Shown: piece after piece, positions 2,751 to 60,441 of the stretch
Layout: the number at the start of each line of letters is the position of its first letter
How positions within the stretch are numbered: position 1 is the first letter of the stretch
From: Acidimicrobiia bacterium
Lineage (GTDB): Bacteria; Actinomycetota; Acidimicrobiia; Spongiisociales; ZC4RG35
Assembly (NCBI GenBank): GCA_035292685.1
Contig: DATDPP010000040.1
Coordinates: 1,398 to 65,397 of the forward strand
Direction: 5' to 3'
Length of the DNA: 64,000 nt
Made by a program: the position numbers and the translations under genes
Notes under the pieces: model-generated
The model's input: the letters and a program-made list of their open reading frames with translations, nothing else
Told to the model about the DNA's origin: nothing
The model's database searches: none

Positions 2751-2782
2751 TCGAACCCCCATGCTATGAGGTCGGAGCGGGT

Positions 2783-2808
2783 TTCCTGTCACAGGCCACC
2801 CGTAGCGT
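2783..2808 (+). promoter_or_regulatory. Candidate damage-type promoter, site B: TTCCTGTC-N12-TAGCGT, 7 nt before ATG 2816
   Basis: TGTC at 2787-2790, 12-nt spacer acaggccacccg, TAGCGT at 2803-2808, ggtgccc, ATG 2816. CCTGTCACAGG is also an inverted repeat. Confidence 0.5.
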
Positions 2809-2815
2809 GGTGCCC

Positions 2816-2959
2816 ATGAGACAGTTGATGAAGGAAGAGCCCGCAGCCCTGAACCAGGAAGCCGACCCCTACTCGGACCCCGTCCTCTACCTGCGGGCCT
2901 TGGGCATCGAAGCGGAACTGATAGAAACCCGGGACACCGATCTCCCTTCCGCTGCCTGA
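2816..2959 (+). CDS. Small acidic hypothetical protein (47 aa), possible leaderless first gene of the adnAB unit
   Basis: MRQLMKEEPAALNQEADPYSDPVLYLRALGIEAELIETRDTDLPSAA. Mostly G/C third positions. The ATG sits exactly where the other three motif sites place their start codon. Ends 16 nt before the adnA GTG. Confidence 0.35.
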   Translation: MRQLMKEEPAALNQEADPYSDPVLYLRALGIEAELIETRDTDLPSAA

Positions 2960-2975
2960 TACCTACGATCGCCAG

Positions 2976-12854: not shown

Positions 12855-14018
12855 TCAGGGCCGGGTGAGGGCGATGCGGAGACGCCAGGCTGCGAGCAGG
12901 AGCAGGACTGTCGCGTAGACGATGAGGACCCCCAACTCGGCGAGGATGTCGGCCACCGTCCCGTTTCTCCGAACCAGCTCGGCGAAGCCGTCGAGAGCCC
13001 ATGCATGGGGTGTGATGTGAGCCACGGTCTGCATGGTCGGTGAGAACAACTCGGCTGGCAGCATGCACCCGCCGAGGGCTGCCAGGCCCAGGGCCAGGAC
13101 AACACCGATCCCGCCGGCCTGGGCATCGTTGTTGAAGGTCGCCCCAACCAACATGCCCGCCCCCGCACCCACCGCGGAGAATGTGATCAGGATCAAGGCA
13201 GCTCCGAGTGGGTCGCCCCAGTCGACCTGAAACAAGAAGAAGGTGACCAGGATGATGTAGAGGCCCTGCACCATGGCAACTGCCCACCGCCCCGTCCCTT
13301 CGCCAATCACGATGGTCCTGGTGGTAGTCGGGGTTGACAGCATGCGCCGCGATATCCCGAGTTGGCGGCTGAGGATCAGCGCCGCCGAACCGGCGAGCGC
13401 CGTCAGAAACACGAAGAGAATCAGTTGCTGGGACGCTCCCAGGTCGAACTGGCCCAGGGAGGCCGGGAACAATGACTCACCGACGGCCGTCACCTCGACA
13501 CCCAGGCCTGGAGCACCCTCCCGCAGTGCCACTGCGGCCGCCAGGGCGCCGTCGAATGGGGCGCCGGTCTTCAGCGCTGCGAACTGGGCCGCGGTGACCG
13601 GTGTCATGACCCTCGACACCGCCGCCCCGACCACAGACTGGATCTGGGGGCCGAAGCCATCAGGCCGGGACACGAAGTCGACCTTCACCTGCTCCCCCGC
13701 TCCCGCCTTCTGATCCATGCCAGCCGGCACGAACAGCCCGGCCTGAGAACTCCCCTGTTCCACCGATGCGACCAACTCCTCGGACGTGTCGAAGCGCCTT
13801 ACGTCGAGGTTGTCTTCTGACTCGACCTCCCCGGCGATCGCAACGGCCAACTGATCGTCGTCCGCCAGATAGAGCCCGATTACCGGATCGACCCCGCCGC
13901 CGAATTGGGCACCGATGAGCAGGATCAATGCCAACGGGAAGACAAAGACGAAGAAGATGTTCGAGCGTTCCCTCAGCATCCTTCGCACGTTGGACCAAGC
14001 AATGGCGAAGACCTTCAT
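12855..14018 (-). CDS. ABC-2 type transporter permease
   Basis: Track ORF trimmed to ATG 14018 (MKVFAIAWSNVRRML), a 4-nt overlap with the upstream permease stop. N-terminal TM, large loop, C-terminal TM bundle. Confidence 0.8.
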   Translation of the reverse strand: MKVFAIAWSNVRRMLRERSNIFFVFVFPLALILLIGAQFGGGVDPVIGLYLADDDQLAVAIAGEVESEDNLDVRRFDTSEELVASVEQGSSQAGLFVPAGMDQKAGAGEQVKVDFVSRPDGFGPQIQSVVGAAVSRVMTPVTAAQFAALKTGAPFDGALAAAVALREGAPGLGVEVTAVGESLFPASLGQFDLGASQQLILFVFLTALAGSAALILSRQLGISRRMLSTPTTTRTIVIGEGTGRWAVAMVQGLYIILVTFFLFQVDWGDPLGAALILITFSAVGAGAGMLVGATFNNDAQAGGIGVVLALGLAALGGCMLPAELFSPTMQTVAHITPHAWALDGFAELVRRNGTVADILAELGVLIVYATVLLLLAAWRLRIALTRP

Positions 14019-15196
14019 TCGGCAATCCTCCGACGAAGAACGACCCAGGCGACGCTTCCAAGCACCAAGGAGAAAACGAGCAGAGCCGCCACGGAAGGCA
14101 GGGCGGCGGTCCATTCCGCCCCGCCCGAGATGTCGGCCAACCCTCCCATGAACCAGGCATGCGGGGTGAGGAATGTCAGCTTGCTCAGCAGGTCGTCACC
14201 CTGGCCGACGGGAAAGAAGGTGCCACCGAGCATTCCAAGGGTGACCGCGATGATGGCCCCGAGGTTTCCCGCCCCCTCCGGAGTCCTGGCGACACTGCCC
14301 ACCAATCCCATGATCGCCACCGCTGAGAGCACCCCGGCGACCACCAGAAGGGCCACACCGAGCGGCGGCCCCCAGACCGCGTCCATCACGAAACGCGTCG
14401 TCACCATCAGGACGCCCACAGAGATGATCCCGAGCGCCAGCGAGAGAAGGGCCTTGCCGGTGATGACGCTGGTCCGACGGATCGGAGCCGCCAACAATCG
14501 GGCCATGGTGCCGTCGCGTTTCTCCTCGAGAAGGCCAACCACCCCGAACTGGACGGTGAAGAAGAGGAAGAAGACGGCCATCCCCGCCGAGAAGTAGGTC
14601 GTGGGGTCGAGTTGTCGGGTCGCGGTCGTGACATCGTCGAGGACGAAGGACTGCCCACGTCCTGCCGCTTCCTGGCCCCAGCCGGCGGCTTCGGCAGGCG
14701 GAGGGCCGTCCAACAAGTCAAAAGAGGTCGCCACCGCGAGTTGGACCCCGGCAACCCCGGACCCGTACTGCTCCGCGATCCCCGCAGCTATCTGGGTCGA
14801 GGTCGGGGCGTCGATATTCCCAATGACGCGGATGTCGAACCCCTCCCCGGCCAGCACCGCCTCCTCCATTCCGGGATCGATCACGTAGTAGGCGTCGATC
14901 TCGCCTTCCTCGACTGCGGCTTCGGCGCTACCGGCACTCTCGTAGTCGGTCAGAGTGAGGATCCCTTCGCTCTCCACCGCCACCAGGATGTCGCCAAAGG
15001 ACTGGGATATCTCCGTGTCGTCGAGATCGACGAGACCGAAGCGGAGGTCGAGCGTGTTGGCGGTGAGCGCATCACCGAACACAAAGTTGAAGATGAAGGC
15101 CAGGACCAGCGGGGCGAGGATCCCGAGGATGAACACCGAACGGTCGCGGACCCGGAGCTTGAGGTCCTTGGTCGCGATTCGGATGGCTGCGCCCAC
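14015..15196 (-). CDS. ABC-2 type transporter permease
   Basis: 393 aa, same topology as its neighbour (paralogous pair). Confidence 0.8.
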   Translation of the reverse strand: MGAAIRIATKDLKLRVRDRSVFILGILAPLVLAFIFNFVFGDALTANTLDLRFGLVDLDDTEISQSFGDILVAVESEGILTLTDYESAGSAEAAVEEGEIDAYYVIDPGMEEAVLAGEGFDIRVIGNIDAPTSTQIAAGIAEQYGSGVAGVQLAVATSFDLLDGPPPAEAAGWGQEAAGRGQSFVLDDVTTATRQLDPTTYFSAGMAVFFLFFTVQFGVVGLLEEKRDGTMARLLAAPIRRTSVITGKALLSLALGIISVGVLMVTTRFVMDAVWGPPLGVALLVVAGVLSAVAIMGLVGSVARTPEGAGNLGAIIAVTLGMLGGTFFPVGQGDDLLSKLTFLTPHAWFMGGLADISGGAEWTAALPSVAALLVFSLVLGSVAWVVLRRRIAE

Positions 15197-22994: not shown

Positions 22995-23480
22995 TCATCT
23001 GTGCTCGGTATCACCTGACAACAGATCGAGGGCATGTGGGATGACTTCGAGCACCGCCTCCAGGCCATCGACCGCGCCCCTGGCCGAGCCGGGGACGTTG
23101 ATCACAAGCGTGTGCCCTAGCGAGCCCGCCCTCGCCCGCGACAGCCCCGCCATGGCAGTCGACTCCAGGCCGCGCGACATCATCATGTGGGTCAGACCCG
23201 GCGCCTCCCGCTCCAGGACCTGGGCGGTGGCCTCAGGGGTCACGTCTCGAGGGCCGAGCCCGGTGCCACCTGTGGTGACGATCAGACTGGCCTCTGGCGC
23301 CGATTTCTGGAGAGCAGCCACAATCGCCGGGATCTCGTCGGGCACGACCGCTCTTCTCACCTCGAAGCCGGCCTCGGAGAGGATGGCCCCCAAGGCATCG
23401 CCCGAGGTGTCCTCTCTGATCCCCGAACTGACACCGTCACTGACGGTGACCACGACCGCGATGCGAGCCGCTACCCCCAC
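22995..23480 (-). CDS. MoaB/MogA-family molybdenum cofactor biosynthesis protein
   Basis: Trimmed to GTG 23480 (10-nt overlap with upstream gene). TTGGTGLGPRD motif. Confidence 0.8.
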   Translation of the reverse strand: MGVAARIAVVVTVSDGVSSGIREDTSGDALGAILSEAGFEVRRAVVPDEIPAIVAALQKSAPEASLIVTTGGTGLGPRDVTPEATAQVLEREAPGLTHMMMSRGLESTAMAGLSRARAGSLGHTLVINVPGSARGAVDGLEAVLEVIPHALDLLSGDTEHR

Positions 23481-24313
23481 AGGGTGGGGTCGATCGAAAC
23501 CCCGCCCCGGAGAACGAAGATGGAGAAGAGAAGCATCACGAACAACGTTGCTCCCAACCCCCAGGGCCAAGGAGTCGTTTGCGAGTCTTCGGGGCCCTGC
23601 ACGGTGTTGGTCCCTGGCGCCGCAGCCACGGTGGCCAGGAAGATGACGGCTGTCAGTGGCAACGAAGGGATTACCCCGCTCCCGGCATCCGGGGTGAAGA
23701 AGGGGATGGCGAGGAACACCGCGATCACCGCCGGCACCAGGGCGATCCATAGCGCGAATGTGAACCGCTTACGCCCGTTGTTGATCATGCGATGGTGTGG
23801 AGTGAAAGCGAGAAATGCAGAGGCCGAGGACAGGACGATGAGGAGGAGGCCGACCGCTCCCCCGACCGCGATCACAACGTTCAGGCCGGGCGGGGCATCG
23901 AAGGTGGCGTACGCCAGGCCCAATTGGCCATCGGGGTCGAAGGGGAGAAGGATCGCCTGTCCCAACGCCTGCCGCAGGATGTTCAACAACATCCAGAGCA
24001 ACGCGAGCCGCGCGGTCCCGTGACCACGTGCGGTCGGGTAGGCGAACAGGACGAGAAAGCCCACGATCAGGCACAGCAGGAACCCGCCGGCCCAGGCAAG
24101 GTCGCTGACCCCGGAGATCTCAGCCCGGTTGTTGTAGACCACGGCTTGGCCATCGAGGATGTATGCCAGGAGGCCGTCACCCAGGTCATCGAGGAACTGG
24201 GCGATGACGATTCCCATCGTCGAGCCGAGAACCGACGCGACGACCAGCGGAGGGCCGATCCTTTTGATCGTCTCCGTTGTCGATGACTCTTGAGCCGATA
24301 CCTCACTTGTCAC
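23471..24313 (-). CDS. Hypothetical polytopic membrane protein
   Basis: 280 aa, about 7 hydrophobic segments. TAGCAT sits 8 nt upstream of the GTG start. Confidence 0.55.
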   Translation of the reverse strand: MTSEVSAQESSTTETIKRIGPPLVVASVLGSTMGIVIAQFLDDLGDGLLAYILDGQAVVYNNRAEISGVSDLAWAGGFLLCLIVGFLVLFAYPTARGHGTARLALLWMLLNILRQALGQAILLPFDPDGQLGLAYATFDAPPGLNVVIAVGGAVGLLLIVLSSASAFLAFTPHHRMINNGRKRFTFALWIALVPAVIAVFLAIPFFTPDAGSGVIPSLPLTAVIFLATVAAAPGTNTVQGPEDSQTTPWPWGLGATLFVMLLFSIFVLRGGVSIDPTLWG

Positions 24314-24383: not shown

Positions 24384-24641
24384 TCACAAATCGGCTACGA
24401 GCAGGGTCGCCATCGCCCAAAGGAGGAACACCCCAATTGCCAGAAGCAACACGGGGCCGGTCCGTTTCCAATTCAGCGACGACCAGATGGCGACCATCGC
24501 ACAGAGGATGGCCATGGTCACCGTCCACCAGACCGGGACCACCCCGACGACCGCCGCGCCCACGGTCAACACCAAGACGACGACCAGGAATCCACCGGCC
24601 ACCAGCGCATAGAGGACCTGACGAGGGGTGGGCTCGCTCAC
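24384..24641 (-). CDS. Small hypothetical membrane protein (85 aa, 3 TM)
   Basis: ATGA overlap with the mug stop. Strongly hydrophobic. Confidence 0.5.
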   Translation of the reverse strand: MSEPTPRQVLYALVAGGFLVVVLVLTVGAAVVGVVPVWWTVTMAILCAMVAIWSSLNWKRTGPVLLLAIGVFLLWAMATLLVADL

Positions 24642-25201
24642 AAGAGACCCGCGGCCCGGCCCACCTCGGCGAACCAGCGGGCAACCGATTCAACCGTCTC
24701 ATGGGCATTGAGGCCGGAGGGATTGGGAATCACCCAGATCTGCGCCCCCCAGACATCGGGCTCCTGTCGACCCATCACCGCACCGGGTCGACCGAAAGCG
24801 AGGCGATAGGCGGTCACCCCGGCAATGGCCGCCACCGTCGGGCGTGAGGTCGCGAGGGTCGCCAGGAGCCTGACTCCACCTCGACGCAACTCGGCACCGT
24901 CGATTTCCGAGGCACGGGCGGTTGCCCTCGGGACCAGATTGGTGATGCCCATTCCCCGGGCCAGAAAGGCGGCGCGTTGGGCATCGGTCAACCCCACGTT
25001 GGTGTCGATGTCCAGGTGGATGAGACCAGCCCGGCGCAGCGCCGGATAGAAGCGGTTGGAGGGGTGGCAGAAATGGGTCTGGGTGGCCGCGGTCCACAGC
25101 CCGGGATTGATGCCCACGAACAGAAGGCGGACATCGGGGCCAAGCAGGTCGGGAACAGCCCGTCCCTCGAAGTTCTTCAGCTGTTCCCGGGTGAATCCCA
25201 C
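24638..25201 (-). CDS. mug: G/U mismatch-specific uracil-DNA glycosylase (family 2 UDG)
   Basis: GINPGLWT and NPSGLN motifs, 187 aa. Confidence 0.8.
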   Translation of the reverse strand: MGFTREQLKNFEGRAVPDLLGPDVRLLFVGINPGLWTAATQTHFCHPSNRFYPALRRAGLIHLDIDTNVGLTDAQRAAFLARGMGITNLVPRATARASEIDGAELRRGGVRLLATLATSRPTVAAIAGVTAYRLAFGRPGAVMGRQEPDVWGAQIWVIPNPSGLNAHETVESVARWFAEVGRAAGLL

Positions 25202-43307: not shown

Positions 43308-44408
43308 TCAATCCGGGACTTGGTCATCGGCGAGATCGGCGACGATCTCGCGCACCAGCTGCGATTTGCGTCTCGGGACGATGAGAACGGCCTCGGGAGT
43401 CTCGATAACCACCAGATCCTCGATCCCGGCCACAGCCACCAGACGCGACGTGGCCTGGATGTAAGACCCGGTGACATCCCGGGAAGCGACCTCGCCGACG
43501 AGGACGTTGCCTGAGGCATCGTGTGGTGAGTTCTCCCAAACCGCCTCCCACGAGCCGACGTCGCTCCAACCGACATCGATCGGGACGACCAGACCCTGCT
43601 TGGTATGTTCCATGACGGCATGATCGATGGAGATTGCCGGGTTCTCTGCGAAGCCGGGTGCGAGATCGATCCGGGGACCGCGCTGATCGGGGATCGCAGC
43701 TCTCACCCCTGCCAGTAGGTCGGGGCAGATCAGGGCGCATTGCTCCAGAATCGCACGGGCCGTGAACACGAACATCCCCGAGTTCCATAGATGCCGGCCA
43801 TCGGCGGCGAGCTGGCCGGCCTGGCCCGCGTCCGGCTTTTCCTTGAATGCCACCACCTCGAGCGCGGCCCCCACCGGCGACCCGGTTTCGATGTAGCCGT
43901 AGCCGGTCTCGGGACGGTCTGGAACGACACCAAAGAGAACGAGGGCGCCCTCCCGGGCAATGGAAACCGCAGTCTCTACTGCGCCGACGAACCCTTCCCG
44001 GTCCTCTATCAGGTGATCGGCCGGCAGCACCACCAGGACATCGTCAGGGTCGGAGAGCAGGGCTGCGGCAATGATCGCGGGGGCGGTGTTCCGCCCTTGC
44101 GGCTCGACCACGACGGATTCGATCTCGGATCGGGTCGCTCTGACGACCCGATCGACCGCATCCAGGTGCAGGGCGCCGGTGATGATCAGAAGTGGCGCCA
44201 GGTTGGACAGACCATCGAGACGGGTCAGGGTCGCCTCGAACAGCGAGCCGCCCATGAGATCGAGGAATTGCTTTGGATTGGGCTCGGTTGACAGGGGCCA
44301 GAGCCGGGTGCCTGCTCCCCCGGAGAGGATTACCGGTCGGACAGGTGATGCCACCTGGCGAGGGTACCTGTCCGCACCGTGGTCGCCGTGGTTGGATCTC
44401 AGGGACAT
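43308..44408 (-). CDS. manC: Mannose-1-phosphate guanylyltransferase
   Basis: LSGGAGTRLWPLS nucleotidyltransferase motif, 366 aa. Confidence 0.8.
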   Translation of the reverse strand: MSLRSNHGDHGADRYPRQVASPVRPVILSGGAGTRLWPLSTEPNPKQFLDLMGGSLFEATLTRLDGLSNLAPLLIITGALHLDAVDRVVRATRSEIESVVVEPQGRNTAPAIIAAALLSDPDDVLVVLPADHLIEDREGFVGAVETAVSIAREGALVLFGVVPDRPETGYGYIETGSPVGAALEVVAFKEKPDAGQAGQLAADGRHLWNSGMFVFTARAILEQCALICPDLLAGVRAAIPDQRGPRIDLAPGFAENPAISIDHAVMEHTKQGLVVPIDVGWSDVGSWEAVWENSPHDASGNVLVGEVASRDVTGSYIQATSRLVAVAGIEDLVVIETPEAVLIVPRRKSQLVREIVADLADDQVPD

Positions 44409-44843: not shown

Positions 44844-46100
44844 CTATTCGGAATCGGTATCGGAGATCCCGAGCGAGATATACCCGCACTCGCTGCAGAT
44901 CAGGCGAGTGATCCCGAGCCCACCGGGCGCCTCCACGAACTCGTGCAGGTGGGAGCCTTTGTTTCTCACGAAAGCGGCACGAACCGCCCCAAAGATGCCG
45001 GATCGATCCGCAACAGGGGCGGTGGCGGCCAGAGCCGGCGCAGGGGCCTTGGTTGTGGGGGCTGCCGGCTCGGGGTCAGGCGCCCTTGCCACCTCATAGG
45101 CTCCGAGGTCGACGACCAGACCCTTCGCGGTAGCATCCCGGTCGTCCTCGGTCGACGTGCTCAACAACTCGCTGACCAGTTCCGGGACCTCGGGCTCGGG
45201 CTTCAGCTCGACCGGCTCCAGTGCGGCCGGCTCCACGGTCCCCACCGGCTCCAGCTCGACCGGCTCCAAGGTGACGGCCGGCTCCACGGCCTCCACCGGC
45301 TCCAACTCGACCGGCTCCAAGGCGGCGGCCGGCTCCAGGGTCCCCACCGGCTCCAACTCGACCGGCGCCAACTCGACCGGCGCCAACTCGACCGGTTCCG
45401 GGCGGAACACCTCTGTCGGCTCGACCTCGGTAATCGGCGGTGGGGGCGGCGGCGCAGTCGGTGGGCGGGCGATCAGACCCGGCCCAGGACGCAACGGGAT
45501 GACCGCAATGGGTGGAGCCTCCAGCTCTTCGACCACCGGCGCCTCTTCGACCACCGGCAGCACCTCTTCGATCTGCTCCACCGGCGGCGGGATCGGCCCT
45601 GACCACTCCTGGATGGGCGGGGTTGGCACCTCGACTGGAGGGGCCACGGGAGTGGGGGCGGCGGCGAGGGCGGGTGCCGCGGTCGGCCCCTCGACATCCT
45701 CGGCCCAATCGGCGACACTCTGGGCCTCGAGGTTGGCCAGCATGGCGTCACGCAGCTCCGTGACCCGTGAGGGGATGGTCCCCCGGCGTGAGCGACCCAC
45801 AGCGACCATCCTCCGCGGAAAGGTCATCGCCTTGAAACTTGCCCAGGACTCTGCCATATGGTCGACGCCCTTGTAGGCGAAGTCCATCGGCTCGTCGGCA
45901 ATGAAGGTTATCTCGTCTCCTGCCAGGGACACCGAGAAGGCGGCGGAAACCAGACGTGAGGCATGCACGTCGAATAGCGACCACCGGCCAAGTGACTCCC
46001 CTTCGAGAAGGACCTCCGCCTGGTCGTCTTCGACCACGAAGACCGCGGGAACGCCTGGGTGGTCGACCTCCGGAACCCGTACCTGTCCGGTGAATCTCAC
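44844..46100 (-). CDS. Hypothetical protein: globular N-domain, long Pro/Glu/Val repeat region, short C-terminal CxxC segment
   Basis: 418 aa. Repeats EPVELAPVELAPVELEPVG. C-terminal LICSECGY. Confidence 0.55.
   Translation of the reverse strand: MRFTGQVRVPEVDHPGVPAVFVVEDDQAEVLLEGESLGRWSLFDVHASRLVSAAFSVSLAGDEITFIADEPMDFAYKGVDHMAESWASFKAMTFPRRMVAVGRSRRGTIPSRVTELRDAMLANLEAQSVADWAEDVEGPTAAPALAAAPTPVAPPVEVPTPPIQEWSGPIPPPVEQIEEVLPVVEEAPVVEELEAPPIAVIPLRPGPGLIARPPTAPPPPPPITEVEPTEVFRPEPVELAPVELAPVELEPVGTLEPAAALEPVELEPVEAVEPAVTLEPVELEPVGTVEPAALEPVELKPEPEVPELVSELLSTSTEDDRDATAKGLVVDLGAYEVARAPDPEPAAPTTKAPAPALAATAPVADRSGIFGAVRAAFVRNKGSHLHEFVEAPGGLGITRLICSECGYISLGISDTDSE
45200..45400. repeat. Imperfect in-frame tandem repeat (about 51-nt units built from a 15-nt sub-repeat ggcKccaRctcgacc)
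   Basis: Four consecutive units read directly at 45202-45400. They encode (L/V)EPVE-type pentapeptides on the minus strand. Confidence 0.8.
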
Positions 46101-52181: not shown

Positions 52182-53153
52182 GTGACCGCGCCCCCGGTGT
52201 TCTTGTTGGGGAGGACAAACTTGGCCAATCAGATCCTGACAACCTCCCACGGAACCAACCGTGAGGCTTTCAGTCCCAAGGATTGGGGCCTGTTCCTCAG
52301 TGTGTCGGCCATCTGGGGATCGTCGTTCTTGTTCATGACGATTGGGCTCGATGCGTTCCACCCCGGTTTGGTCACCTGGTTGCGGCTGGGCTTCGGGGCT
52401 GCGTTCATAGCCATGCTCCCCCGCGCCCGGCAATCGAAGATCCCCCGCCGCGAGTGGCGTCGAATTGGGGTGCTCGGGCTGATCTGGCTCGCCATCCCGT
52501 TCACGATCTTCCCGATTGCCCTGCAATGGGTCGACTCGTCGGTGACAGGGATGCTCAACGGCGCCACCCCTATCTTCACCGCGGTGATTGCCTCGATCCT
52601 CCTCTGGCATCTCCCCGGGCGTTTTCAGATGATCGGCCTGGTGGTCGGTTTCACCGGGATCGTTGCCATCGCCCTCCCCTCGGCCGGGGAGGGCTCAACG
52701 GCGGCGCTCGGAGTGGTGTTGATAGTGGTGGCCACGATTTGCTACGCATTCGCCACCAACATCGTCGCCCCGCTGCAGCAGAAGTACGGATCGCTTCCGG
52801 TGATGGCACGGGTGCAATGGGTGGCCGTCGCTTTGGTCACGCCCTACGGGATCTACGGGCTGACCCGGTCCGAATTCGCCTGGCCTTCCCTGTTTGCGAT
52901 GTTGGCGGTCGGAGTCCTGGGCACCGGCGTCGCCTTGGTGCTGATGGGGTCTCTGGTGGGGAGTGTCGGCCCGACCCGCGCCACCTTCGTCACCTATGTC
53001 TACCCGGTGGTCGCCTTGGCCCTGGGGGTGGTTTTCAGGGACGAGGTGGTTGCGCCGATCGCCATCGCCGGCATCCCCCTGGTCATCGCAGGGGCGGTTA
53101 TCGCCTCCCGCAGCGAGGTCGCCTTCAGGCCGCTGCCAGCCGAAGCGCTCTGA
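52182..53153 (+). CDS. EamA/DMT family transporter
   Basis: 323 aa, 10 TM, duplicated EamA halves. Confidence 0.75.
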   Translation: MTAPPVFLLGRTNLANQILTTSHGTNREAFSPKDWGLFLSVSAIWGSSFLFMTIGLDAFHPGLVTWLRLGFGAAFIAMLPRARQSKIPRREWRRIGVLGLIWLAIPFTIFPIALQWVDSSVTGMLNGATPIFTAVIASILLWHLPGRFQMIGLVVGFTGIVAIALPSAGEGSTAALGVVLIVVATICYAFATNIVAPLQQKYGSLPVMARVQWVAVALVTPYGIYGLTRSEFAWPSLFAMLAVGVLGTGVALVLMGSLVGSVGPTRATFVTYVYPVVALALGVVFRDEVVAPIAIAGIPLVIAGAVIASRSEVAFRPLPAEAL

Positions 53154-54027
53154 TCACGAGATCGCGGTCCCCAAGTCGTCGCCGGAGCTCCCGCTCCAGA
53201 CCACCGATCGGGTAGAGGTTCTGGGGGGCCCGCGGATCCTTGTGTCTCGCCGAGGCGTATCGAGGCAACGTGGCCGACACCAGATGGGCCATTCGGGCGG
53301 CGTCCGCCACATTCATGTCCGCCTTCACCTCACAGCGGACCAGGCCTCCGGCGGGACCAGCGCCGTTGGCCAGACGCAGATACCACGAGAAGCGGCTCCA
53401 GGAGGTAGTGGTGAGGAACAGCGGGGTGCGGTAACCGACCGGAAGCGTCCCCAGGGTTGCCCTGAGCTCGTCCTGAAGGTATTGCACATGCTGGGTCTTG
53501 ACGTATCCGACGGCTCCCTCGAGGTGACGACGATGGGAAAGCGGGCCGTCGACTACCACCAAGGCGGCGTCGCCATGATCGGCTGCCACCTCGCCCTCGA
53601 GGTCGCCCATCCGCTCCTGGATGCCCAACCAGAGCTCCTCGGGAGTCGAGCCCTTGGTGCTCATCACCTCATAGCGCCCAACCTTGGTGTCGACCGATTC
53701 GGCCGGGCCCGAGGTGAAGATCCCCCGGCGGACACTGGAAGCAACCACCCTGGCGCCACCGTTGCAACGAACGGCGCCGGCCGCGAAGGTAGCCGCCAGG
53801 CCGAACCCGGGAAAGAGGCCCTCCCGGTCGATCCAGAGGTTGGCGTCGACCCTTCGCACCCCGTCAACGAACAGGATGTCCTCGGCCGGGGCGCATTCCG
53901 GCAACAACGGGCGCCATTGGTCCGGGCTGACCTCGACCGACGGGTCCACCTTGTCGGTGGAATCGGCCAGATCGGCGTCGGAGGGGGCTCCGTAATCCGG
54001 ATCCCAGGCCTCGACCGTGAACCTCAC
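53125..54027 (-). CDS. NurA-like nuclease (tentative)
   Basis: 300 aa. GTGA overlap with the sbcC stop. DG-containing strands ILFVDGVRRVD and ALVVVDGPLS resemble NurA motifs. It occupies the nurA position of the archaeal herA-mre11-rad50-nurA operon. Confidence 0.5.
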   Translation of the reverse strand: MRFTVEAWDPDYGAPSDADLADSTDKVDPSVEVSPDQWRPLLPECAPAEDILFVDGVRRVDANLWIDREGLFPGFGLAATFAAGAVRCNGGARVVASSVRRGIFTSGPAESVDTKVGRYEVMSTKGSTPEELWLGIQERMGDLEGEVAADHGDAALVVVDGPLSHRRHLEGAVGYVKTQHVQYLQDELRATLGTLPVGYRTPLFLTTTSWSRFSWYLRLANGAGPAGGLVRCEVKADMNVADAARMAHLVSATLPRYASARHKDPRAPQNLYPIGGLERELRRRLGDRDLVIRALRLAAA

Positions 54028-56381
54028 GAGACCAGCTCCACCACCGAGCCGGTGGGCTCGCGCCGGACTTCTAGCCGGACCGTGGCCCGGGCCGCCAGCT
54101 CCTTGACATGAGTGACGATGCCGACCATGAGCCCACGGCCGGTCAACTCCTCGAGCACCGAAGCCACCGTGTCCAGAGACTCCTCGTCCAGGGTGCCGAA
54201 ACCTTCGTCCAGGAAGATCGCATCGAGACCGGAGGCGGCGCCTGCGGACAGGGTCTCCGCCAGGGAGAGGGCGAGAGCGAGGGCAACCAGGAAGGTCTCG
54301 CCCCCGGAGAGGGTCGATACCGATCGGGTCTCGTCGGCGTTGCGGTGGTCGACGATGGCGAACCCTCCGTCATCATCGGCCTCGAGCGCGAAGCCCCCAC
54401 CGGAGAGCTGGGCCAGGAGGTCGTTGGCCCCGGCGACCAGTTCGGTGATCGCACCGGCCATCAACCAGCGCTCGAAGCCGTCGGCACGGAGGTGGGCGGC
54501 AAGTGAATGAGCGACGGCGGCGCCGGCTTGCGACTCCTCGATGACCTTGGCCAGCTCGGCGGCGAGGGCGATGGTCTTCTCCATCTCATCAAACGCCTGC
54601 TTTGCTTGTTCTTGCTCCCGCGCCACGTGAACCGCGTAGGGGGCAACCGGCTCGATTCCGATGCCCTCCAGCTCGGCCACCAAACGCTCCTTTGCATTCA
54701 CTGCGCCGGTGACCGCGGCCCGGGCTTGGGCCTCCGCCTCCACGAGGCGGGCCCCGGTGTCGAGGCGGGCCTGGTCGATCCAACCCATCAGTTCCTTCCA
54801 CTGAACGAGGCTGTCGTCGCTCTCGGGTAACGGCGGCCGGAGATCGGCCACAGTCTCTCGGGCCGCCATCAAAGCGCGGCCAATCGATCGAAAGGCCTCG
54901 GCCGCCGTCTCCAACTCGCGGCGGGTCGCGGCGAGGAGCCCTTCGACTACTCCGAGCTCGTGCTGCCTCGCGACGACGAGAGCCTTTGCCGCTTCCACTG
55001 CGCTCATCTGGCGTTCCAGGGCCTCGGCCGGTAGGGCGGGGTCGAGGTCACCGAGAAGCGAGAGGCGTTGGGTCTCCAACTCCTTACGGGTGGCCTCGAT
55101 GCTGGCAGCCTCGGCACGAGCTTCCTCGAGACTGGTGCGAGCCGCGCTCACCCTCGTTGCGGCTGCCACTTCGCCTTCATCGAGCCGAATGAGGTCGGGA
55201 TCACGGTTGTCGTCGGGGAGAGCGGACACCGGGAGATCACAAACCGGGCATGGCATTCCCACCACCAGGGTGGCGCGCAAAGCATGGGCGGCGTGGGTCA
55301 CCCGTGCCGACTCCAGGTCTGAAGTCACCTGCTCGTGAATCGCGACGGCGGCCTCCAAGGCCTCCATCGCCGTTGCCACCCTGGATTCGACGACACCAAC
55401 ATCGTGTTCTTCGAGGCGGGCATCGAGCTCGGTGAGCCGCAGATAGGTCCTTGCATGTGACTCGAGCGATTCGATCGAAGGGAGGCCTTGCAACGCCACG
55501 TTCGCAGTTTCGAGCTCGGTCTCGGCTTGATCCCGGCGTCGCTCGAGCTCTTCGTGGGCATCACGGGCCCGGTTGATCGCCTCGTCGAGCATGTCGAGAT
55601 TGTCGGGAGGAGTGATCGAGTCGAGCCGCTTCAGGTCGCCTTCCAACCGCGACACCACGTCGGCGGCGGCTATGGCGGCCGCCTCCAGCCCGGCCAAGGT
55701 TGCTTCCAGCTCGTCGATCCTTTCGGCCATCTGCTCGAGTTGACCCGACCGGTCACGAGCAACGGCCAGGGATTCCTCGTCCGGGATCTCGAGCGGGGCC
55801 CTTCTCGCCTCGGCCTGCGCCGCTCTGTCCTCCGCCGTGGCTTCCCTCGTTCGCGCCAACCCCCGGATCTCTGAATAGATGTCGAGATCGAGGAGTTTGC
55901 GCAGGAGGGCCTGTCGATCGGACTTGGTGGCCGTCAGAAACCTTGCGAACTCACCTTGGGGCAAGACCACGGTCTTGGTGAAGTCCTCGTAACGCAGCCC
56001 GAGCAGCGCCTCGACTGCCTTGGTCACCTCGTCGGCACCTGAGGCCAGTGTGTCCGGGCCACGCTCGAGACGCGACTCGTTGGTGTTGGCGCCGGTCTTG
56101 GTGCGCAACACCTGTCTCGCCACGGTGTAGACCTGATCCCCCACGGCGAAGTCCACCGAGACCCGGGCCCGGTCGGCTCCGGCGGAGATCACCGGAGCCA
56201 CCTCGCGACCCCCAAGACGGGGGACCCGCCCGTAGAGGGCGAAGATCATGGCGTCGATCAGACTCGACTTCCCCGAGCCCGTTGGCCCGCTGAGCGAGAA
56301 GAAGTCGACCTCGGCGAAGCTGACGCTGCTGTGGGTTCGATAGGCCGAGAACCCTTCGAGGGTGATGCTGAGCGGTCTCAT
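54024..56381 (-). CDS. sbcC: SbcC/Rad50-family SMC-like ATPase
   Basis: 785 aa. Walker A GPTGSGKSS, coiled coils, zinc hook CPVC, signature LSGGE, Walker B IFLDEGFG. Confidence 0.9.
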   Translation of the reverse strand: MRPLSITLEGFSAYRTHSSVSFAEVDFFSLSGPTGSGKSSLIDAMIFALYGRVPRLGGREVAPVISAGADRARVSVDFAVGDQVYTVARQVLRTKTGANTNESRLERGPDTLASGADEVTKAVEALLGLRYEDFTKTVVLPQGEFARFLTATKSDRQALLRKLLDLDIYSEIRGLARTREATAEDRAAQAEARRAPLEIPDEESLAVARDRSGQLEQMAERIDELEATLAGLEAAAIAAADVVSRLEGDLKRLDSITPPDNLDMLDEAINRARDAHEELERRRDQAETELETANVALQGLPSIESLESHARTYLRLTELDARLEEHDVGVVESRVATAMEALEAAVAIHEQVTSDLESARVTHAAHALRATLVVGMPCPVCDLPVSALPDDNRDPDLIRLDEGEVAAATRVSAARTSLEEARAEAASIEATRKELETQRLSLLGDLDPALPAEALERQMSAVEAAKALVVARQHELGVVEGLLAATRRELETAAEAFRSIGRALMAARETVADLRPPLPESDDSLVQWKELMGWIDQARLDTGARLVEAEAQARAAVTGAVNAKERLVAELEGIGIEPVAPYAVHVAREQEQAKQAFDEMEKTIALAAELAKVIEESQAGAAVAHSLAAHLRADGFERWLMAGAITELVAGANDLLAQLSGGGFALEADDDGGFAIVDHRNADETRSVSTLSGGETFLVALALALSLAETLSAGAASGLDAIFLDEGFGTLDEESLDTVASVLEELTGRGLMVGIVTHVKELAARATVRLEVRREPTGSVVELVS

Positions 56382-57511
56382 GCCGTGGCCTCGTCGAGCA
56401 ACTCGGCGAAGAGGGCTTCGACCCTGTCATCGCCGACGTTGTTGTCCTCGAGGTACGTGTGAAAGGCGTCGGTTGGGGTGATGGCCCGTCGGCTCTCGAC
56501 GGCGGGCCTCCGCCCGGAGGTCGGCTGGAGGAGCGTCACGTCGACGGCACCCGGGATTCCGGCTCGCACCATGTCGGCCAGCCCGACCCGGGCCTTCTCG
56601 GTGAGCTCGACCTTGACATAGGCGTCACCAACATCATCGGCCCGAGCCAGCACCTGATCGACGGTTCCCCGGAGGGTGACCAGACCCCGGCCGGAGACGA
56701 GGGGGACCGTCGTCACCTTGGAGGGAAGCCCGGGTGCCGCTTCGACGAGGAGTGCCCCCTTGCGATCCTCCACCTCACCGAAGTCGAGTTGCAGAGGTGA
56801 CCCCGAGTACCAGACCGACCCACCATGAGGCACTTTCTGTTGGCGATGGAGGTGCCCCAGGGCCACATGAGAGAGATGACCGGGAAACACCGAAGCGGGC
56901 ACCGCGTACCCGAAGATGTGGGCCTGTCGCTCTCCCCCTCCCTCTTGGGCGCCATGCACCGTCAAATGGCCGACCAGGAGGTTGACCATGTCGGTGGTCA
57001 TATCGGCGGTGAGGGCGCCGATCAGCCGCTTGATCCGGTCCTCGTATACCCCGGCGTGCTGATCGGGGTCCGAGCCCATTATCTGCTCGGCCCGCACCAC
57101 GCCACGCTGGGAGACGAAGGGGAGCATGGCGACCTTGATCCCGAGGTCATCGTAGGAGACAACCCCACCCCGATCCGGCGGGAATGGTTGGGAGCAGGCG
57201 ATGATCCGGCCCATCTCGAGCAGCGGGGCCACCGCATCCAGCCGTGCCGGGTTGTCGTGGTTGCCTGCGATGACCAGCACCGGGGCCACCTCGGCCAGGT
57301 CGAGCAGGCCCCTCCAGGCGATTTGCTCGGCGACAGGGGTCGGTGCCGAGGTGTCGAACACGTCGCCGGCGACGACGACGAGCTGGACCTCGGCCCCAGC
57401 GGCGATCGTCACCAACTCGGCCAGAACCGAGCGGTGCTCCTCAGACCGGTCCCGGCCCCGGATCCGTTTCCCGACATGCCAATCGGAGGTGTGGAGGATC
57501 TTCACCGTCAC
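56378..57511 (-). CDS. sbcD: SbcD/Mre11-family nuclease
   Basis: HTSDWHVG, GDVFD, GNHD, GH phosphoesterase motifs. ATGA overlap with the sbcC start. Confidence 0.9.
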   Translation of the reverse strand: MTVKILHTSDWHVGKRIRGRDRSEEHRSVLAELVTIAAGAEVQLVVVAGDVFDTSAPTPVAEQIAWRGLLDLAEVAPVLVIAGNHDNPARLDAVAPLLEMGRIIACSQPFPPDRGGVVSYDDLGIKVAMLPFVSQRGVVRAEQIMGSDPDQHAGVYEDRIKRLIGALTADMTTDMVNLLVGHLTVHGAQEGGGERQAHIFGYAVPASVFPGHLSHVALGHLHRQQKVPHGGSVWYSGSPLQLDFGEVEDRKGALLVEAAPGLPSKVTTVPLVSGRGLVTLRGTVDQVLARADDVGDAYVKVELTEKARVGLADMVRAGIPGAVDVTLLQPTSGRRPAVESRRAITPTDAFHTYLEDNNVGDDRVEALFAELLDEATA

Positions 57512-57518
57512 GGGGTCG

Positions 57519-57544
57519 ATCGTAAAGAGCAGGTGGGACAGATT
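57519..57544 (-). promoter_or_regulatory. Candidate damage-type promoter, site D: AATCTGTC-N12-TACGAT, 7 nt before GTG 57511
   Basis: Minus strand: TGTC at 57540-57537, spacer ccacctgctctt, TACGAT at 57524-57519, cgacccc, GTG. Confidence 0.5.
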
Positions 57545-57568
57545 CGGGGAGCCGGCCGGAGAGGAGGG

Positions 57569-59239
57569 TTACAGACCCTCGAAAGGGTCCTCCGGGCCGG
57601 TGGAAGCCGGCACCGAAACGGCCTCGGACGCTCTGGTGGCCCAGGCGGGGAAGGGGAACTCCAAAACCAGAGGAACCGGCAGCTCGGGCTGGCTCAAGAT
57701 CATGGTTCCCGGCTTGAGGATGGTCGCCCGCTGCCTGTGCACCGAGGGAAGAAAGCCGTACTCCTCCCGTGCCGCCTCGGCCGCATCGAGACGCCCCACA
57801 ACCCGGATCGAGGAGTTTGCGATGATCCGGCGCTCCACCTCGGAGGCTGTCTGCTGGGCACCGATCAGGATGACTCCGAGGGAGCGGCCGCGCTCAGCCA
57901 CGTCGAGCAGGACTTCCTTTATCGGGCTGGTTCCCTCACGCGGGGCGTATTTGTTCAACTCGTCGAGCACCACCAGCAGGAGCTCGTCGGACTGGCCGGC
58001 CCGCTCCTTGTCGTCGAACGCTCGCTTCAAGGTCACACCCACCACGAAGCGCTTCGCCCGATCGTTGAGGTTGTGGAGGTCGACCACCGTCACCTGATTG
58101 GGGTCGAGCCTTATCTTGTGACGCTCCGGGTCAGGGACATCGGCCCGGATCATGCGCTCCAGGTGGCGGACCGAGGCCTGCAATCTCCGGACAAAGGCGT
58201 TGATGGTGCCGAGGCCGATGGCAGGGCCCGCCCAGAGAAACCGATGCTCCTCGGATTGGACCCGGTCGGTGACCAGATCGACGAACTCGCGAAAGGTGCG
58301 CACTTTGACGCCGTCGACCACCGCGGCCCCGGTTTCCGTGGCCTCGGCATGGCGCAACTGGGCCATCACGTTGTAGACAACGGTCGTGTACTGGGCACGG
58401 TCGTCCTCCGCGTCGGCAAACAGGAACGGGAGAAGGTCGTCCACACAGAACTCGTGAAGAGTCCAGAAGAAAGACGTCACATCGGACCGGGAAGCGACGT
58501 CGGCGGTTGCCCTCTGATCGTCGATTCGAGGCGGGGCGAAGATCCCCACCGAGTCGAAGGGAGTGGAGGGGAGGCCGAGATGGGTGTAGCCGAGACGGTG
58601 CTCCTCATCGAGGCGGGTATTGACCCGGTCGAGATGGAGCAGATCCTCGCCCTTGACGTTGAAGATGAGGGCCTTGGTGTTGACCACGGCTTTGCCCAGG
58701 ACCCCCGAGGTGAACAGGGAGTGGAGAAGGAAGGTTGCGTAGCTCGTCTTGGTCGCCACCCCGGAGATCCCTGAGATGTTGACGTGGGCTCCCCGTTCGC
58801 CGTTGATGAACTCGAAGTTCACCCACAGCGGCTCCTTGTTGCGCGCCAGCCCCACCGGGAATTTCTGCTCCATCTGGTCGAAGAAGAGAGCCTGATCCCG
58901 CTCGTCCCCGACGGCGATCCGCACCTCCTGGCCGGGAAGCGGCGGGACGAACACCTCGGGCTCGAAGCGGGTGGTCGTGACCTGGGCGGTTTCGACCACC
59001 TCGGCGGGGAGGATCCCGTCCTCTATGAGAAACACGTCGGAGTCGAACCTGGCCCCCTCGTGCCGGGCAACCACCTGGCCAACCATCCCGAACATTCGAA
59101 CCATCTCACCGGTTGGGAGCACCCGCTCGAGGGCCACGACGTCGTCGAGTTGGACGTACTGCCCCTCCTCGATTCCGATCCAGAACTCGAGTGGGGTGGC
59201 GTCTTTGGTCCCGAGGACCCGGCCGACCATGTCTTCCAT
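57569..59239 (-). CDS. HerA-like FtsK/HerA-superfamily ATPase (HAS-barrel plus P-loop)
   Basis: 556 aa. N-terminal HAS-barrel-like GRVLGTKDATPLEFWI...VQLDDVV. P-loop GISGVATKTS. Walker B LLLVVLDELNKY. Confidence 0.7.
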   Translation of the reverse strand: MEDMVGRVLGTKDATPLEFWIGIEEGQYVQLDDVVALERVLPTGEMVRMFGMVGQVVARHEGARFDSDVFLIEDGILPAEVVETAQVTTTRFEPEVFVPPLPGQEVRIAVGDERDQALFFDQMEQKFPVGLARNKEPLWVNFEFINGERGAHVNISGISGVATKTSYATFLLHSLFTSGVLGKAVVNTKALIFNVKGEDLLHLDRVNTRLDEEHRLGYTHLGLPSTPFDSVGIFAPPRIDDQRATADVASRSDVTSFFWTLHEFCVDDLLPFLFADAEDDRAQYTTVVYNVMAQLRHAEATETGAAVVDGVKVRTFREFVDLVTDRVQSEEHRFLWAGPAIGLGTINAFVRRLQASVRHLERMIRADVPDPERHKIRLDPNQVTVVDLHNLNDRAKRFVVGVTLKRAFDDKERAGQSDELLLVVLDELNKYAPREGTSPIKEVLLDVAERGRSLGVILIGAQQTASEVERRIIANSSIRVVGRLDAAEAAREEYGFLPSVHRQRATILKPGTMILSQPELPVPLVLEFPFPAWATRASEAVSVPASTGPEDPFEGL

Positions 59240-59247
59240 CCCAGGCG

Positions 59248-59273
59248 AGAGTAGACCCGCCCTGGGACAGGAA
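59248..59273 (-). promoter_or_regulatory. Candidate damage-type promoter, site C: TTCCTGTC-N12-TACTCT, 8 nt before ATG 59239
   Basis: Minus strand: TGTC at 59269-59266, spacer ccagggcgggtc, TACTCT at 59253-59248, cgcctggg, ATG. Confidence 0.5.
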
Positions 59274-59283
59274 TCGGTCTCCT

Positions 59284-60441
59284 ATGGTGGTCTCGGTGAG
59301 CCTGGCGGTCTTCCCATTCAAGGACGAGGATCCGGCGCTGGTGATCGCCAACCTCGCGACGGCCGCCTCCCACTCCCGGATCGACGAGGTGTGGGCGGTG
59401 GCCTCTGAGGACGGCCCCACGACCCGTCAGGTCGAAGCGGGGGCCGCCGAGACCTCGGGGCGGCTCTCCAAACCGATCTCGGTCATCCCCCAGGAGCGGA
59501 TCGGGGATCTCCGACCAGGAAAGGGAGACGCCATGAACACCGCCATCCGGCGCGCCGCCGGACAGGGCAGGGAGCGGGTTCATTTCTACGACGCCGATAT
59601 CACCAACTTCGACGAGACCTGGATCGAAGGCGCCGAGGATGCCGCCGATCGCGGGTACGGCGTCGTCCGTCATCGATTCCCCCGTGCGGCCACCGACGCC
59701 ATGATCACGTGGATGATTACCAGGCCCGGCCTCGCCCTGCTCTTTCCAGGCACCTTCCTCCCCAGGCTCAACCAACCGCTGGGAGGAGAACTCCTCCTCA
59801 CCAGGGTCGCCCTGGAATCCCTTGCCGGGTCCCAATTGGTCATGTCGCGCTCGGATTGGGGCATCGACACCGTGCTCACCTACGCCACCTCGATGATGGG
59901 GGTGGGTCTCTACGAGCATCACGTAGCCGGAGGGAAGCGCCACACCCTCTATGGGTCGTTGGATGAGCTGCGGTGGATGGTGATCGAATGCCTCGATGCC
60001 GTGTCCGGGCTCGCCGGCATGGCAGGCCCGCAGCCGGGGGCCCGTCATGGGAGCGATCCAGCCGCACCGGTGCCGCCCGACCTCAAGCGCACTGTCGCCT
60101 ACGACCTCAGCTCCACGCTCCCCCTCCTGACCAGCGGGTGGACCGACGAGGAGATCGAGCTCGCCGCCGATCTGCCGGCTCAGGCCCGGGTGGGGATCAT
60201 GGCCAACCTCGACCGGCCTGAGTTCTCCTTCATGGATGCCGGGATCTGGCTGGAGACACTGCGGTTCCTGCTCTCCGGCTTCCGTTTGGGATACCAGGCC
60301 TGGGAGTCACTCGCCTTTCGCCTCTGGCTCACCAGGGTTCTCGCTTATACCACCAACCAGGCCCAGGACGGCTATGACCTGGCGATCGACTACCTGGAGG
60401 CCACGATCCGCGACTACGAGCGTCTCGCCGACCAGTCTTAG
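59284..60441 (+). CDS. GT-A glycosyltransferase resembling mannosylglycerate synthase (GT78; GT81 GpgS/MpgS not excluded)
   Basis: Trimmed to ATG 59284 (MVVSVSLAVFPFK). Motifs RPGKGDAMNTA, HFYDADI (DxD), FPRAATDAMITWMITRPG, QPLGGELL, RSDWGIDT. About 385 aa with a helical C-terminal extension. Confidence 0.6.
   Translation: MVVSVSLAVFPFKDEDPALVIANLATAASHSRIDEVWAVASEDGPTTRQVEAGAAETSGRLSKPISVIPQERIGDLRPGKGDAMNTAIRRAAGQGRERVHFYDADITNFDETWIEGAEDAADRGYGVVRHRFPRAATDAMITWMITRPGLALLFPGTFLPRLNQPLGGELLLTRVALESLAGSQLVMSRSDWGIDTVLTYATSMMGVGLYEHHVAGGKRHTLYGSLDELRWMVIECLDAVSGLAGMAGPQPGARHGSDPAAPVPPDLKRTVAYDLSSTLPLLTSGWTDEEIELAADLPAQARVGIMANLDRPEFSFMDAGIWLETLRFLLSGFRLGYQAWESLAFRLWLTRVLAYTTNQAQDGYDLAIDYLEATIRDYERLADQS

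Follow-up and report, generated by a model that had tools for sequence, protein, structure and literature searches.

A herA-sbcD-sbcC-nurA cluster behind DNA-damage-type promoter motifs in Acidimicrobiia, a probable bacterial module for DNA-end processing

Introduction

Archaea such as Sulfolobus and Pyrococcus co-express the genes for HerA, Mre11, Rad50 and NurA (PMC4351679, PMC2288612) from an operon that has been described as UV-induced (PMC5448004, Introduction). We analyzed a stretch of 64,000 nucleotides from an Acidimicrobiia bacterium (GenBank assembly GCA_035292685.1, contig DATDPP010000040.1, positions 1,398 to 65,397), referred to here as the window, in which the same four functions stand in the same order as herA, sbcD, sbcC and nurA. 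We think it quite probable that this cluster is a chromosomal, damage-inducible module of bacterial-type proteins that processes the ends of DNA double-strand breaks (DSBs). The archaeal operon is essential and is read as a single transcript, whereas the window cluster has two predicted promoters and a herA/sbcD junction that tolerates insertions in related genomes, and the published identity between bacterial and archaeal HerA or NurA is below 20% (PMC9960219).

Among bacteria, the pair that has been solved is the NurA-HerA of Deinococcus radiodurans (structures 7F6D/7WRW; PMC9960219). Its HerA (DrHerA) is orthologous to the window HerA over the full length and shares the unusual Walker A sequence GVATKT, and its NurA (DrNurA) has the same catalytic Asp, Lys and Arg as the window NurA, the same Trp (W8 in the window protein) and most of the same HerA-contacting basic residues. 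In Deinococcus, an organism without RecBCD/AddAB-type enzymes, the two genes form a nurA-herA operon that is unlinked to sbcCD. In the window, by contrast, nurA and sbcC are the coupled pair, herA follows a promoter motif of its own, an AdnAB enzyme is encoded in the same stretch, and NurA is 300 aa long against about 349 aa for DrNurA. A bacterial HerA/NurA pair linked to bacterial SbcCD, as in the window, has been remarked on in Oceanithermus profundus, where the genes run nurA-hepA(herA)-sbcD-sbcC (PMC5448004). That order is also the one found in Chloroflexota, candidate division WS2 and a cyanobacterial plasmid, whereas Actinomycetota carry nurA at the 3′ end. A structural paper of 2023 described bacterial NurA-HerA as confined to a small number of bacteria without RecBCD-type enzymes, Deinococcus-Thermus for example (PMC9960219).

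Two further systems bear on the locus. The mycobacterial PafBC/RecA-NDp regulon (PMC8223512, PMC6789036) resembles the window, likewise in Actinomycetota, in that repair genes, adnAB among them, are preceded by a TGTC -35-like box and a TAnnnT -10 box with a fixed distance between the two; in Acidimicrobiia, regulator binding and induction are predictions by analogy. Anti-phage HerAs (SIR2-HerA, DUF4297-HerA; 8XAU, 8YHO, 9C1M) share the HerA-type ATPase core with the window protein, at profile E-values of 1e-9 to 1e-5. They stand in defence islands, where their partners are NADases or other toxic effectors, whereas the window HerA accompanies NurA and SbcCD in a conserved core locus.

Results

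Layout of the cluster

The cluster consists of four consecutive minus-strand open reading frames (ORFs) of 556, 377, 785 and 300 aa, and comprises the following features.

57569-59239, minus strand: herA, a 556-aa bacterial-type HerA, putative hexameric double-stranded DNA (dsDNA) translocase
56378-57511, minus strand: sbcD, a 377-aa Mre11-type nuclease
54024-56381, minus strand: sbcC, a 785-aa Rad50-type ATPase with a short coiled coil
55239-55250, minus strand: CPVC zinc hook at the midpoint of the coiled coil (SbcC residues 378-381)
53125-54027, minus strand: nurA, a 300-aa RNase-H-like nuclease
59248-59269, minus strand: RecA-NDp/PafBC-like promoter motif of herA, TGTCCCAGGGCGGGTCTACTCT
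57519-57540, minus strand: second RecA-NDp/PafBC-like motif, in the herA-sbcD gap, TGTCCCACCTGCTCTTTACGAT

An earlier note made from the letters of the window had proposed these gene identities with their order, coordinates and strand, and the ORF list, homology searches and motifs bore all of them out. The overlaps that it gave, ATGA between the sbcD stop and the sbcC start and GTGA between the sbcC stop and the nurA start, read as claimed, and the CPVC zinc hook is in place. The note had also taken the overlaps to imply a fixed stoichiometry; they suggest translational coupling, which is no proof of stoichiometry. The gap between herA and sbcD is 57 nt. The two pairs are interleaved: the coupling joins nurA to sbcC, whereas the physical partner of NurA is encoded by herA. 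All four genes have a G+C content at third codon positions (GC3) of 0.79 to 0.84, the pattern of genuine genes in the host genome.

Identity of the four proteins

When the window HerA was compared with the sequences of the PDB by phmmer, the best match was D. radiodurans HerA (7f6d_B, E=5.9e-145, residues 3-541). The DrHerA structures were matched over their full length, and the P-loop NISGISGVATKTSYA is identical in the two proteins. The window protein has the deviant Walker A motif GVATKT (K164/T165), KGED at 196-199, the Walker B pair D426/E427 and the pore arginines R434 and R491. In the alignment, K164/T165 correspond to DrHerA K175/T176, D426/E427 to D487/E488, R434 and R491 to R495 and R552, and, of the acidic residues E198/D199 after strand 2, D199 corresponds to D220, so that every residue mutagenized in DrHerA is kept. 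Mutagenesis has shown that K175/T176, D487/E488, R495 and R552 are needed for ATPase activity or translocation (PMC9960219).

In an alignment of 23 diverse members of the HerA family, K164, D426 and E427 were invariant. A profile of these sequences found DrHerA in the PDB at E=1.9e-206, followed by the solved anti-phage HerAs (E=1e-9 to 1e-5) and the archaeal prototype, S. solfataricus HerA (4D2I, 3.3e-6), while no VirB4, TraG or FtsK chain was found at E<0.01. The 556-aa ATPase thus groups with HerA and not with VirB4-type ATPases in the profile search, and on these comparisons it is assigned to the bacterial, NurA-associated clade of HerA. The earlier note had called it a HAS-barrel HerA-like ATPase; the HerA part of that description stands, and the HAS-barrel is a prediction from full-length homology to DrHerA, whose structure has one (PMC9960219). 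By analogy with the same crystal structure, the window HerA would form a hexameric ring that translocates dsDNA at the expense of ATP (PMC9960219). The HerA orthologs of Nonomuraea and Streptomyces (loci L088 and L089) appear to have an N-terminal extension upstream of position 7001, which in Nonomuraea is of low complexity and rich in Ala, Gly and Asp; the annotated Streptomyces HerA has 633 aa.

The last gene, which had been thought only weakly assignable, encodes a protein that we identify as a clear NurA, with a predicted RNase-H-like fold and the catalytic residues. Pfam NurA (PF09376) matched residues 51-271 with 25.7 bits against a gathering score of 21. Among PDB sequences, the protein matched DrNurA (7f6d_H, E=3e-19) and the Thermotoga RNase-H-like nuclease TM1739 (E=4e-9), and a profile of the family matched the same two at E=1e-42 and 4e-22, respectively. 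An AlphaFold2 model (mean predicted local distance difference score, pLDDT, 79.1; predicted template-modelling score, pTM, 0.79) was searched with Foldseek and matched 7f6d_G (E=8e-16; template-modelling, TM, scores 0.66/0.61) and TM1739 (1zup; E=8e-14, TM 0.64/0.66). Nothing else in this search was significant, the next matches being RNase H domains.

Both the fold and the acidic catalytic residues sought in this protein are thus present. The residues of interest are W8, D55, E144, D160, K177, H262-K-D264 and R266. In an alignment of 29 NurA sequences from four phyla, which takes in homologs from Chloroflexota, WS2 and Coprothermobacterota, D55, E144, D160, K177 and R266 do not vary, and at least 90% of the sequences have W8 and D264. 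D55, K177 and R266 align with DrNurA D53, K201 and R309, whose alanine mutants have no nuclease activity at all, and W8 is the counterpart of the DrNurA Trp for which stacking on the base has been proposed. Five of the seven basic DrNurA residues that make ionic contacts with HerA (PMC9960219) remain basic in the window protein (R256, H262, K263, R293 and R296). By analogy, NurA is a putative toroidal dimer and Mn2+-dependent 5′-3′ exo/endonuclease that would be stimulated by HerA.

SbcD scored 156.3 bits with TIGR00619 (sbcd; cut-off 77.65), contains the Pfam domains Metallophos and SbcD_C, and has all five phosphoesterase motifs (I-V: DWH, GDVFD, GNHD, GHL and GHLH). SbcC contains AAA_23, SMC_N and SbcC_Walker_B, and its split ABC head is complete with Walker A at residue 32, LSGGE at 691, Walker B at 722 and an H-loop; the CPVC at 378-381 of 785 residues lies at the midpoint of the protein. 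NCBIfam bacterial sbcC models matched it with E-values down to 3e-70. With TIGR00618 it scored 237 bits, under the full-length cut-off of 478.5, which we attribute to a coiled coil about 260 aa shorter than that of the model. Both proteins score far higher with bacterial SbcCD models than with archaeal Mre11/Rad50 models.

These identities bear on the possibility that the cluster is a recent horizontal acquisition of an archaeal herA-mre11-rad50-nurA operon. The Sulfolobus mre11 operon is listed with this same order of genes (PMC4351679), so that the description "archaeal-style" given in the earlier note holds for the order, but it does not hold for the proteins: HerA and NurA are Deinococcus-type proteins, the family profile alone reached archaeal HerA (E=3e-6), archaeal NurA structures were not reached, and SbcD and SbcC fit bacterial models far better. 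The G+C content and codon usage of the cluster match those of the host, and the locus is vertically conserved across the class. Bacterial-type proteins, host-like composition and class-wide vertical conservation effectively refute such a transfer, to which we give hardly any probability. The order typical of Actinomycetota matches the archaeal order (PMC4351679) without a recent archaeal import.

Conservation of the linkage

The HerA family is large. Clustering at 50% identity gave 1,875 clusters for E≤1e-3 and 506 for E≤1e-30. Among GTDB species, each represented by a single genome, a scan recovered HerA relatives in more than 580. We mapped the window proteins onto the loci of the best 80 of these relatives, whose HerA identities are 64-96% and which come from Acidimicrobiia, Nitriliruptorales, Egicoccus and unclassified Actinomycetota metagenome-assembled genomes (MAGs). 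In 16 loci the contig ends too early for the linkage to be judged. In 61 of the remaining 64, herA, sbcD, sbcC and nurA follow one another in this order on one strand; 47 of the 61 are tightly packed and 14 have an insertion of 0.5-3.8 kb between herA and sbcD. The other three lack a complete cluster within 8 kb, and in one of these (L046) sbcD and sbcC lie past a 4.4-kb insertion and the sequence ends before nurA. The inserted genes that we examined were unrelated and mostly on the opposite strand, and included those for mannosyl-3-phosphoglycerate synthase, a DsbA-like protein and oxidoreductases. An Egicoccus MAG (L075) has a same-strand ORF of 711 aa at 1797-3932 between herA and sbcD, with a GC3 of 0.90 and no Pfam match.

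Several of the near-identical clusters (L022, L031, L032, L035, L021, L065 and L066) are labelled as Acidobacteriota, Boseongicola, Gammaproteobacteria or Longimicrobiales although their HerA proteins are 67-96% identical to Acidimicrobiia sequences, and these labels are probably the result of mis-binning or mis-annotation.

The same order occurs in the class Actinomycetes, on the chromosome of Nonomuraea gerenzanensis and on a 451-kb linear plasmid of Streptomyces. The earlier note had thought the four-gene linkage next to AdnAB unusual. For this lineage it is not: herA-sbcD-sbcC-nurA is the order typical of Actinomycetota and the rule across Acidimicrobiia and Nitriliruptoria, it occurs in Actinomycetes too, and a bacterial four-gene linkage has a precedent in Oceanithermus (PMC5448004). 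The order nurA-herA-sbcD-sbcC was found in Dehalococcoidia (Chloroflexota), in candidate division WS2 and on a conjugative cyanobacterial plasmid, and sbcD-sbcC-nurA-herA in Coprothermobacterota. Linkage that persists through three gene orders in at least five phyla is a classical sign of functional coupling, and we regard it as strong evidence. In the Dehalococcoidia loci L081-L083, a fifth gene follows directly on sbcC at 13598-14776 and encodes a 392-aa ATPase with SMC_N/AAA_15/AAA_23 matches.

Promoter motifs before herA and sbcD

The damage-type promoter motif that had been noted before both herA and sbcD was found at both places and is conserved in relatives. The pattern TGTC-N12-TANNNT occurs four times in the window against an expectation of 0.94, and the four copies precede herA, sbcD, a 47-codon ORF just upstream of adnA, and a PD-(D/E)XK nuclease gene at 676. 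All four therefore lead genes for nucleases or helicases that act on DNA ends. The -10 element ends 8 nt before the herA ATG and 7 nt before the sbcD GTG, and with a distance of 7-8 nt to the start codon in all four cases the mRNAs are probably leaderless. In related loci the start codons of herA and sbcD likewise lie 6-8 nt past the -10 element.

Of the related loci, 52 of 77 have the motif ahead of herA and 36 of 72 have it ahead of sbcD, whereas the background is 0.007 per 150-nt window. The 1.1 Mb of these loci contain 106 occurrences, 88 of them before one of the two genes. The consensus is tcTGTCac..cc...gtcTAc.CT at herA and gaTCTGTC.caccccgg...TACGAT at sbcD. Before sbcD, the motif is absent in every locus with a herA-sbcD gap of 20 nt or less and is retained in 11 of 16 loci in which foreign genes have been inserted after herA. 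The strict motif was not found at the expected positions in the Nonomuraea, Streptomyces, Chloroflexota, Coprothermobacterota and cyanobacterial loci, and a search around the Nonomuraea and Streptomyces genes did not locate their promoters.

The architecture of the motif fits the actinobacterial RecA-NDp promoter, of the type activated by PafBC, and would place the cluster in a damage regulon. AdnAB and RecBCD belong to the PafBC regulon of M. smegmatis, and RecA-NDp is reported from other Actinobacteria as well; HerA, NurA and SbcCD are not known to have been named among the members (PMC8223512, PMC6789036). No intrinsic terminator was predicted on the minus strand of the cluster, so that read-through from herA into sbcD is possible. 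The most likely layout is that herA is transcribed from its own promoter and sbcD-sbcC-nurA from a second one, with possible read-through between them.

The other two copies of the motif lie near the left end of the window. One of them, at 2787-2808 on the plus strand, is followed 7 nt later by the 47-codon ORF, which runs from an ATG at 2816 to a TGA at 2959 (MRQLMKEEPAALNQEADPYSDPVLYLRALGIEAELIETRDTDLPSAA) and ends 16 nt before the adnA GTG, so that the transcript of adnA may begin with a leaderless small ORF. The adnA GTG itself has a TACGAT box 7 nt before it, with no TGTC box upstream of that box. The other copy belongs to a stand-alone 261-aa PD-(D/E)XK nuclease gene at 647-1461 on the plus strand (PDDEXK_1, E=5e-36), whose ATG lies 7 nt after the -10 box; this gene, too, probably belongs to that damage regulon.

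We considered whether SbcCD and HerA-NurA might be co-regulated neighbors that work independently and not parts of one machine. SbcCD could then act on hairpins, for instance, while HerA-NurA has a different substrate or a task in DNA transfer or segregation, and shared damage regulation would be the sole cause of their adjacency. The separate promoter of herA would fit this, as would the 14 relatives in which 0.5-3.8 kb of unrelated opposite-strand genes part herA from sbcD, the lack of linkage between nurA-herA and sbcCD in Deinococcus and Thermus (PMC5448004, PMC9960219), and the report that Mre11 and Rad50 of S. islandicus did not co-purify with HerA (PMC4351679). However, nurA appears to be coupled in translation to sbcC rather than to herA, although HerA is the obligate partner of NurA, and this interleaves the two pairs. 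Moreover, the four genes stay linked through three orders in at least five phyla, and S. acidocaldarius Mre11 interacts with HerA (PMC2288612). We consider full independence unlikely.

Genomic context

Composition is even, at about 65% G+C across the whole window, and the nearest relatives of the window proteins in sequence searches are from Acidimicrobiia MAGs. A search of sequencing runs recovered the locus in DNA runs from soil metagenomes only. The annotated neighbors are housekeeping genes (YchF, GpsA, glycine-cleavage P protein, PDH E1, acyl-CoA synthetases and transporters), and no integrase, transposase or restriction gene was found among them. The AdnAB enzyme that the earlier note had placed at 2976-8986 was confirmed by its domains: two tandem subunits each combine a UvrD-type helicase with a C-terminal PD-(D/E)XK nuclease, the product of 2976-5939 and the frame at 5936-8986 each carrying UvrD-helicase, UvrD_C and PDDEXK_1.

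The combination of an SMC-like ATPase with a nuclease, as in Wadjet and Lamassu, and of a HerA with an effector, as in SIR2-HerA and DUF4297-HerA, raises the question of whether the cassette is an anti-plasmid or anti-phage defence system that destroys foreign linear or small circular DNA. PADLOC did return partial matches, of SbcC to mad3, LmuB and JetC and of HerA to mad8 and the anti-phage HerA models, but these were limited to generic P-loop/SMC regions, NurA had no match, and no methyltransferase, SIR2, JetABD or LmuA partner genes lie nearby. Structures of anti-phage HerAs are the second-best PDB matches behind DrHerA, while a phage database held only remote relatives of HerA, at 25-29% identity. 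Four-gene cassettes do occur on the 451-kb linear Streptomyces plasmid, near genes that are presumably Wadjet-like, and on the conjugative cyanobacterial plasmid. In the lineage of the window, however, the cluster is a stable syntenic core locus among housekeeping genes, its HerA is 64-96% identical across the class, which is unlike the fast turnover of defence genes, and both promoters are of the DNA-damage type that is shared with adnA. Housekeeping context, stable synteny, damage-type promoters, the generic nature of the PADLOC matches and the remoteness of the phage relatives favor repair, and a defence function seems to us improbable.

On the plasmid of Streptomyces sp. BB1-1-1 (NZ_CP134205.1; L089, 1-6313), the cassette adjoins TIGR02680, TIGR02678 and DUF2397 genes and a gene for an ImmA/IrrE metallopeptidase, and a gene annotated "helicase associated domain" follows nurA; we take the TIGR02678, TIGR02680 and DUF2397 genes to belong to Wadjet-like families. 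The cassette of the conjugative cyanobacterial plasmid adjoins a transposase gene.

At its 3′ end, nurA overlaps the 3′ end of a convergent gene for an EamA-family transporter (52182-53153, plus strand) by 29 nt at 53125-53153, and no terminator-like structure was predicted there on either strand. Divergent from herA is a gene for a single-step mannosylglycerate synthase (MGS_GT and MGS_C; 59113-60441, plus strand). Its listed start, a TTG at 59113 that overlaps herA, is probably too far upstream, since the Pfam domain begins only at residue 63. Close relatives share both flanking genes in synteny, the one for mannosylglycerate synthase and the one for the EamA protein. In L038, L039, L040 and L051, an opposite-strand gene for the two-step enzyme, mannosyl-3-phosphoglycerate synthase, separates herA from sbcD. 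The repair cluster is thus repeatedly accompanied by genes for mannosylglycerate, a compatible solute. Elsewhere in the window are a GDP-mannose pyrophosphorylase-like gene (43308-44408), a gene for a UDG-superfamily glycosylase (24638-25201), and two minus-strand ORFs of 280 aa (23471-24313) and 418 aa (44844-46100) with coding-like GC3 and no Pfam match at E≤1e-5.

Discussion

We propose that the cluster serves in the repair of DSBs, in which it would act as follows. Upon DNA damage, a PafBC-type activator would turn on the herA unit, the sbcD-sbcC-nurA unit, adnAB and the PD-(D/E)XK nuclease gene. SbcCD, dimerized through its zinc hook, would recognize and open blocked or hairpin DNA ends, and a HerA hexamer would then pump the duplex into a NurA dimer, where the strands would be split and the 5′ strand degraded. 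The remaining 3′ tail would be left for RecA, in parallel to AdnAB or as a back-up for it. Damage induction and the role of PafBC as regulator are inferred from the promoter motifs; SbcCD and HerA-NurA would cooperate or be in contact; and the polarity of resection is predicted by analogy with the biochemistry of D. radiodurans and archaeal enzymes.

Several results weigh against this proposal or parts of it. At the level of the proteins, hidden Markov model searches succeeded for NurA and SbcD, which scored above cut-offs, but SbcC stayed under its full-length cut-off and HerA had no Pfam match at E≤0.01. NCBIfam HerA models gave E=0.0025-0.17 with the window HerA, far under their cut-offs; it is archaeal and anti-phage clades from which these models seem to have been made. 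As neither Pfam nor NCBIfam named HerA, its assignment rests on the Deinococcus structure and on the profile searches, and the earlier note had good reason to be cautious. As to regulation, no gene for PafBC or a WYL-domain regulator was found among the part of the window ORFs that was annotated, and a search for the locus sequence in RNA runs gave no match. The RecA-NDp consensus is reportedly tTGTCRgtg-N8-TAnnnT and is attributed to Gamulin (2004). The cassette also occurs on plasmids, with one copy beside the presumably Wadjet-like genes, so that its role may depend on context. Finally, the role of NurA-HerA in bacteria is disputed, since deletion strains of Deinococcus and Thermus were only mildly affected or even more resistant to damage (PMC9960219).

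A more far-reaching version of the proposal is that SbcCD, HerA and NurA form a single four-protein resectosome, a third resection route that is switched by PafBC, and that the cassette is mobile, with plasmid copies that may serve conflicts between replicons. We put this forward tentatively and regard it as rather doubtful. If true, the resectosome would be the bacterial counterpart of the archaeal Mre11-Rad50-HerA-NurA pathway and an unstudied route beside AdnAB and RecBCD, and the cassette would be a horizontally mobile unit, found on plasmids, in three gene orders and in at least six phyla, or seven with the published case of Oceanithermus.

Much of what surrounds the locus was known already, namely the structure and biochemistry of DrNurA-HerA, classical SbcCD, the textbook archaeal operon and the remark on a bacterial four-gene linkage (PMC5448004). 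What goes beyond the literature considered here is the breadth of the family and the finding that linkage to SbcCD is common across phyla, although earlier descriptions of the bacterial linkage may be broader than the Oceanithermus remark; the order specific to Actinomycetota, with nurA coupled to sbcC; and the conserved pair of PafBC-type promoter motifs, together with an AdnAB that coexists behind the same motif. The statement that NurA-HerA occurs only in few bacteria lacking RecBCD-type enzymes (PMC9960219) is contradicted by a family of 506 clusters and at least 580 genomes, by its usual linkage to SbcCD and by its coexistence with AdnAB.

The cluster is a real and fairly ordinary repair module that has been under-described in the literature, and not a new kind of system. 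Its value lies in offering a tractable bacterial setting, for example in Nonomuraea or Streptomyces, in which to ask how Mre11/Rad50-type complexes pass DNA ends to the HerA-NurA motor, and the same actinobacterial setting is suited to the question of why one cell keeps several resection machines.

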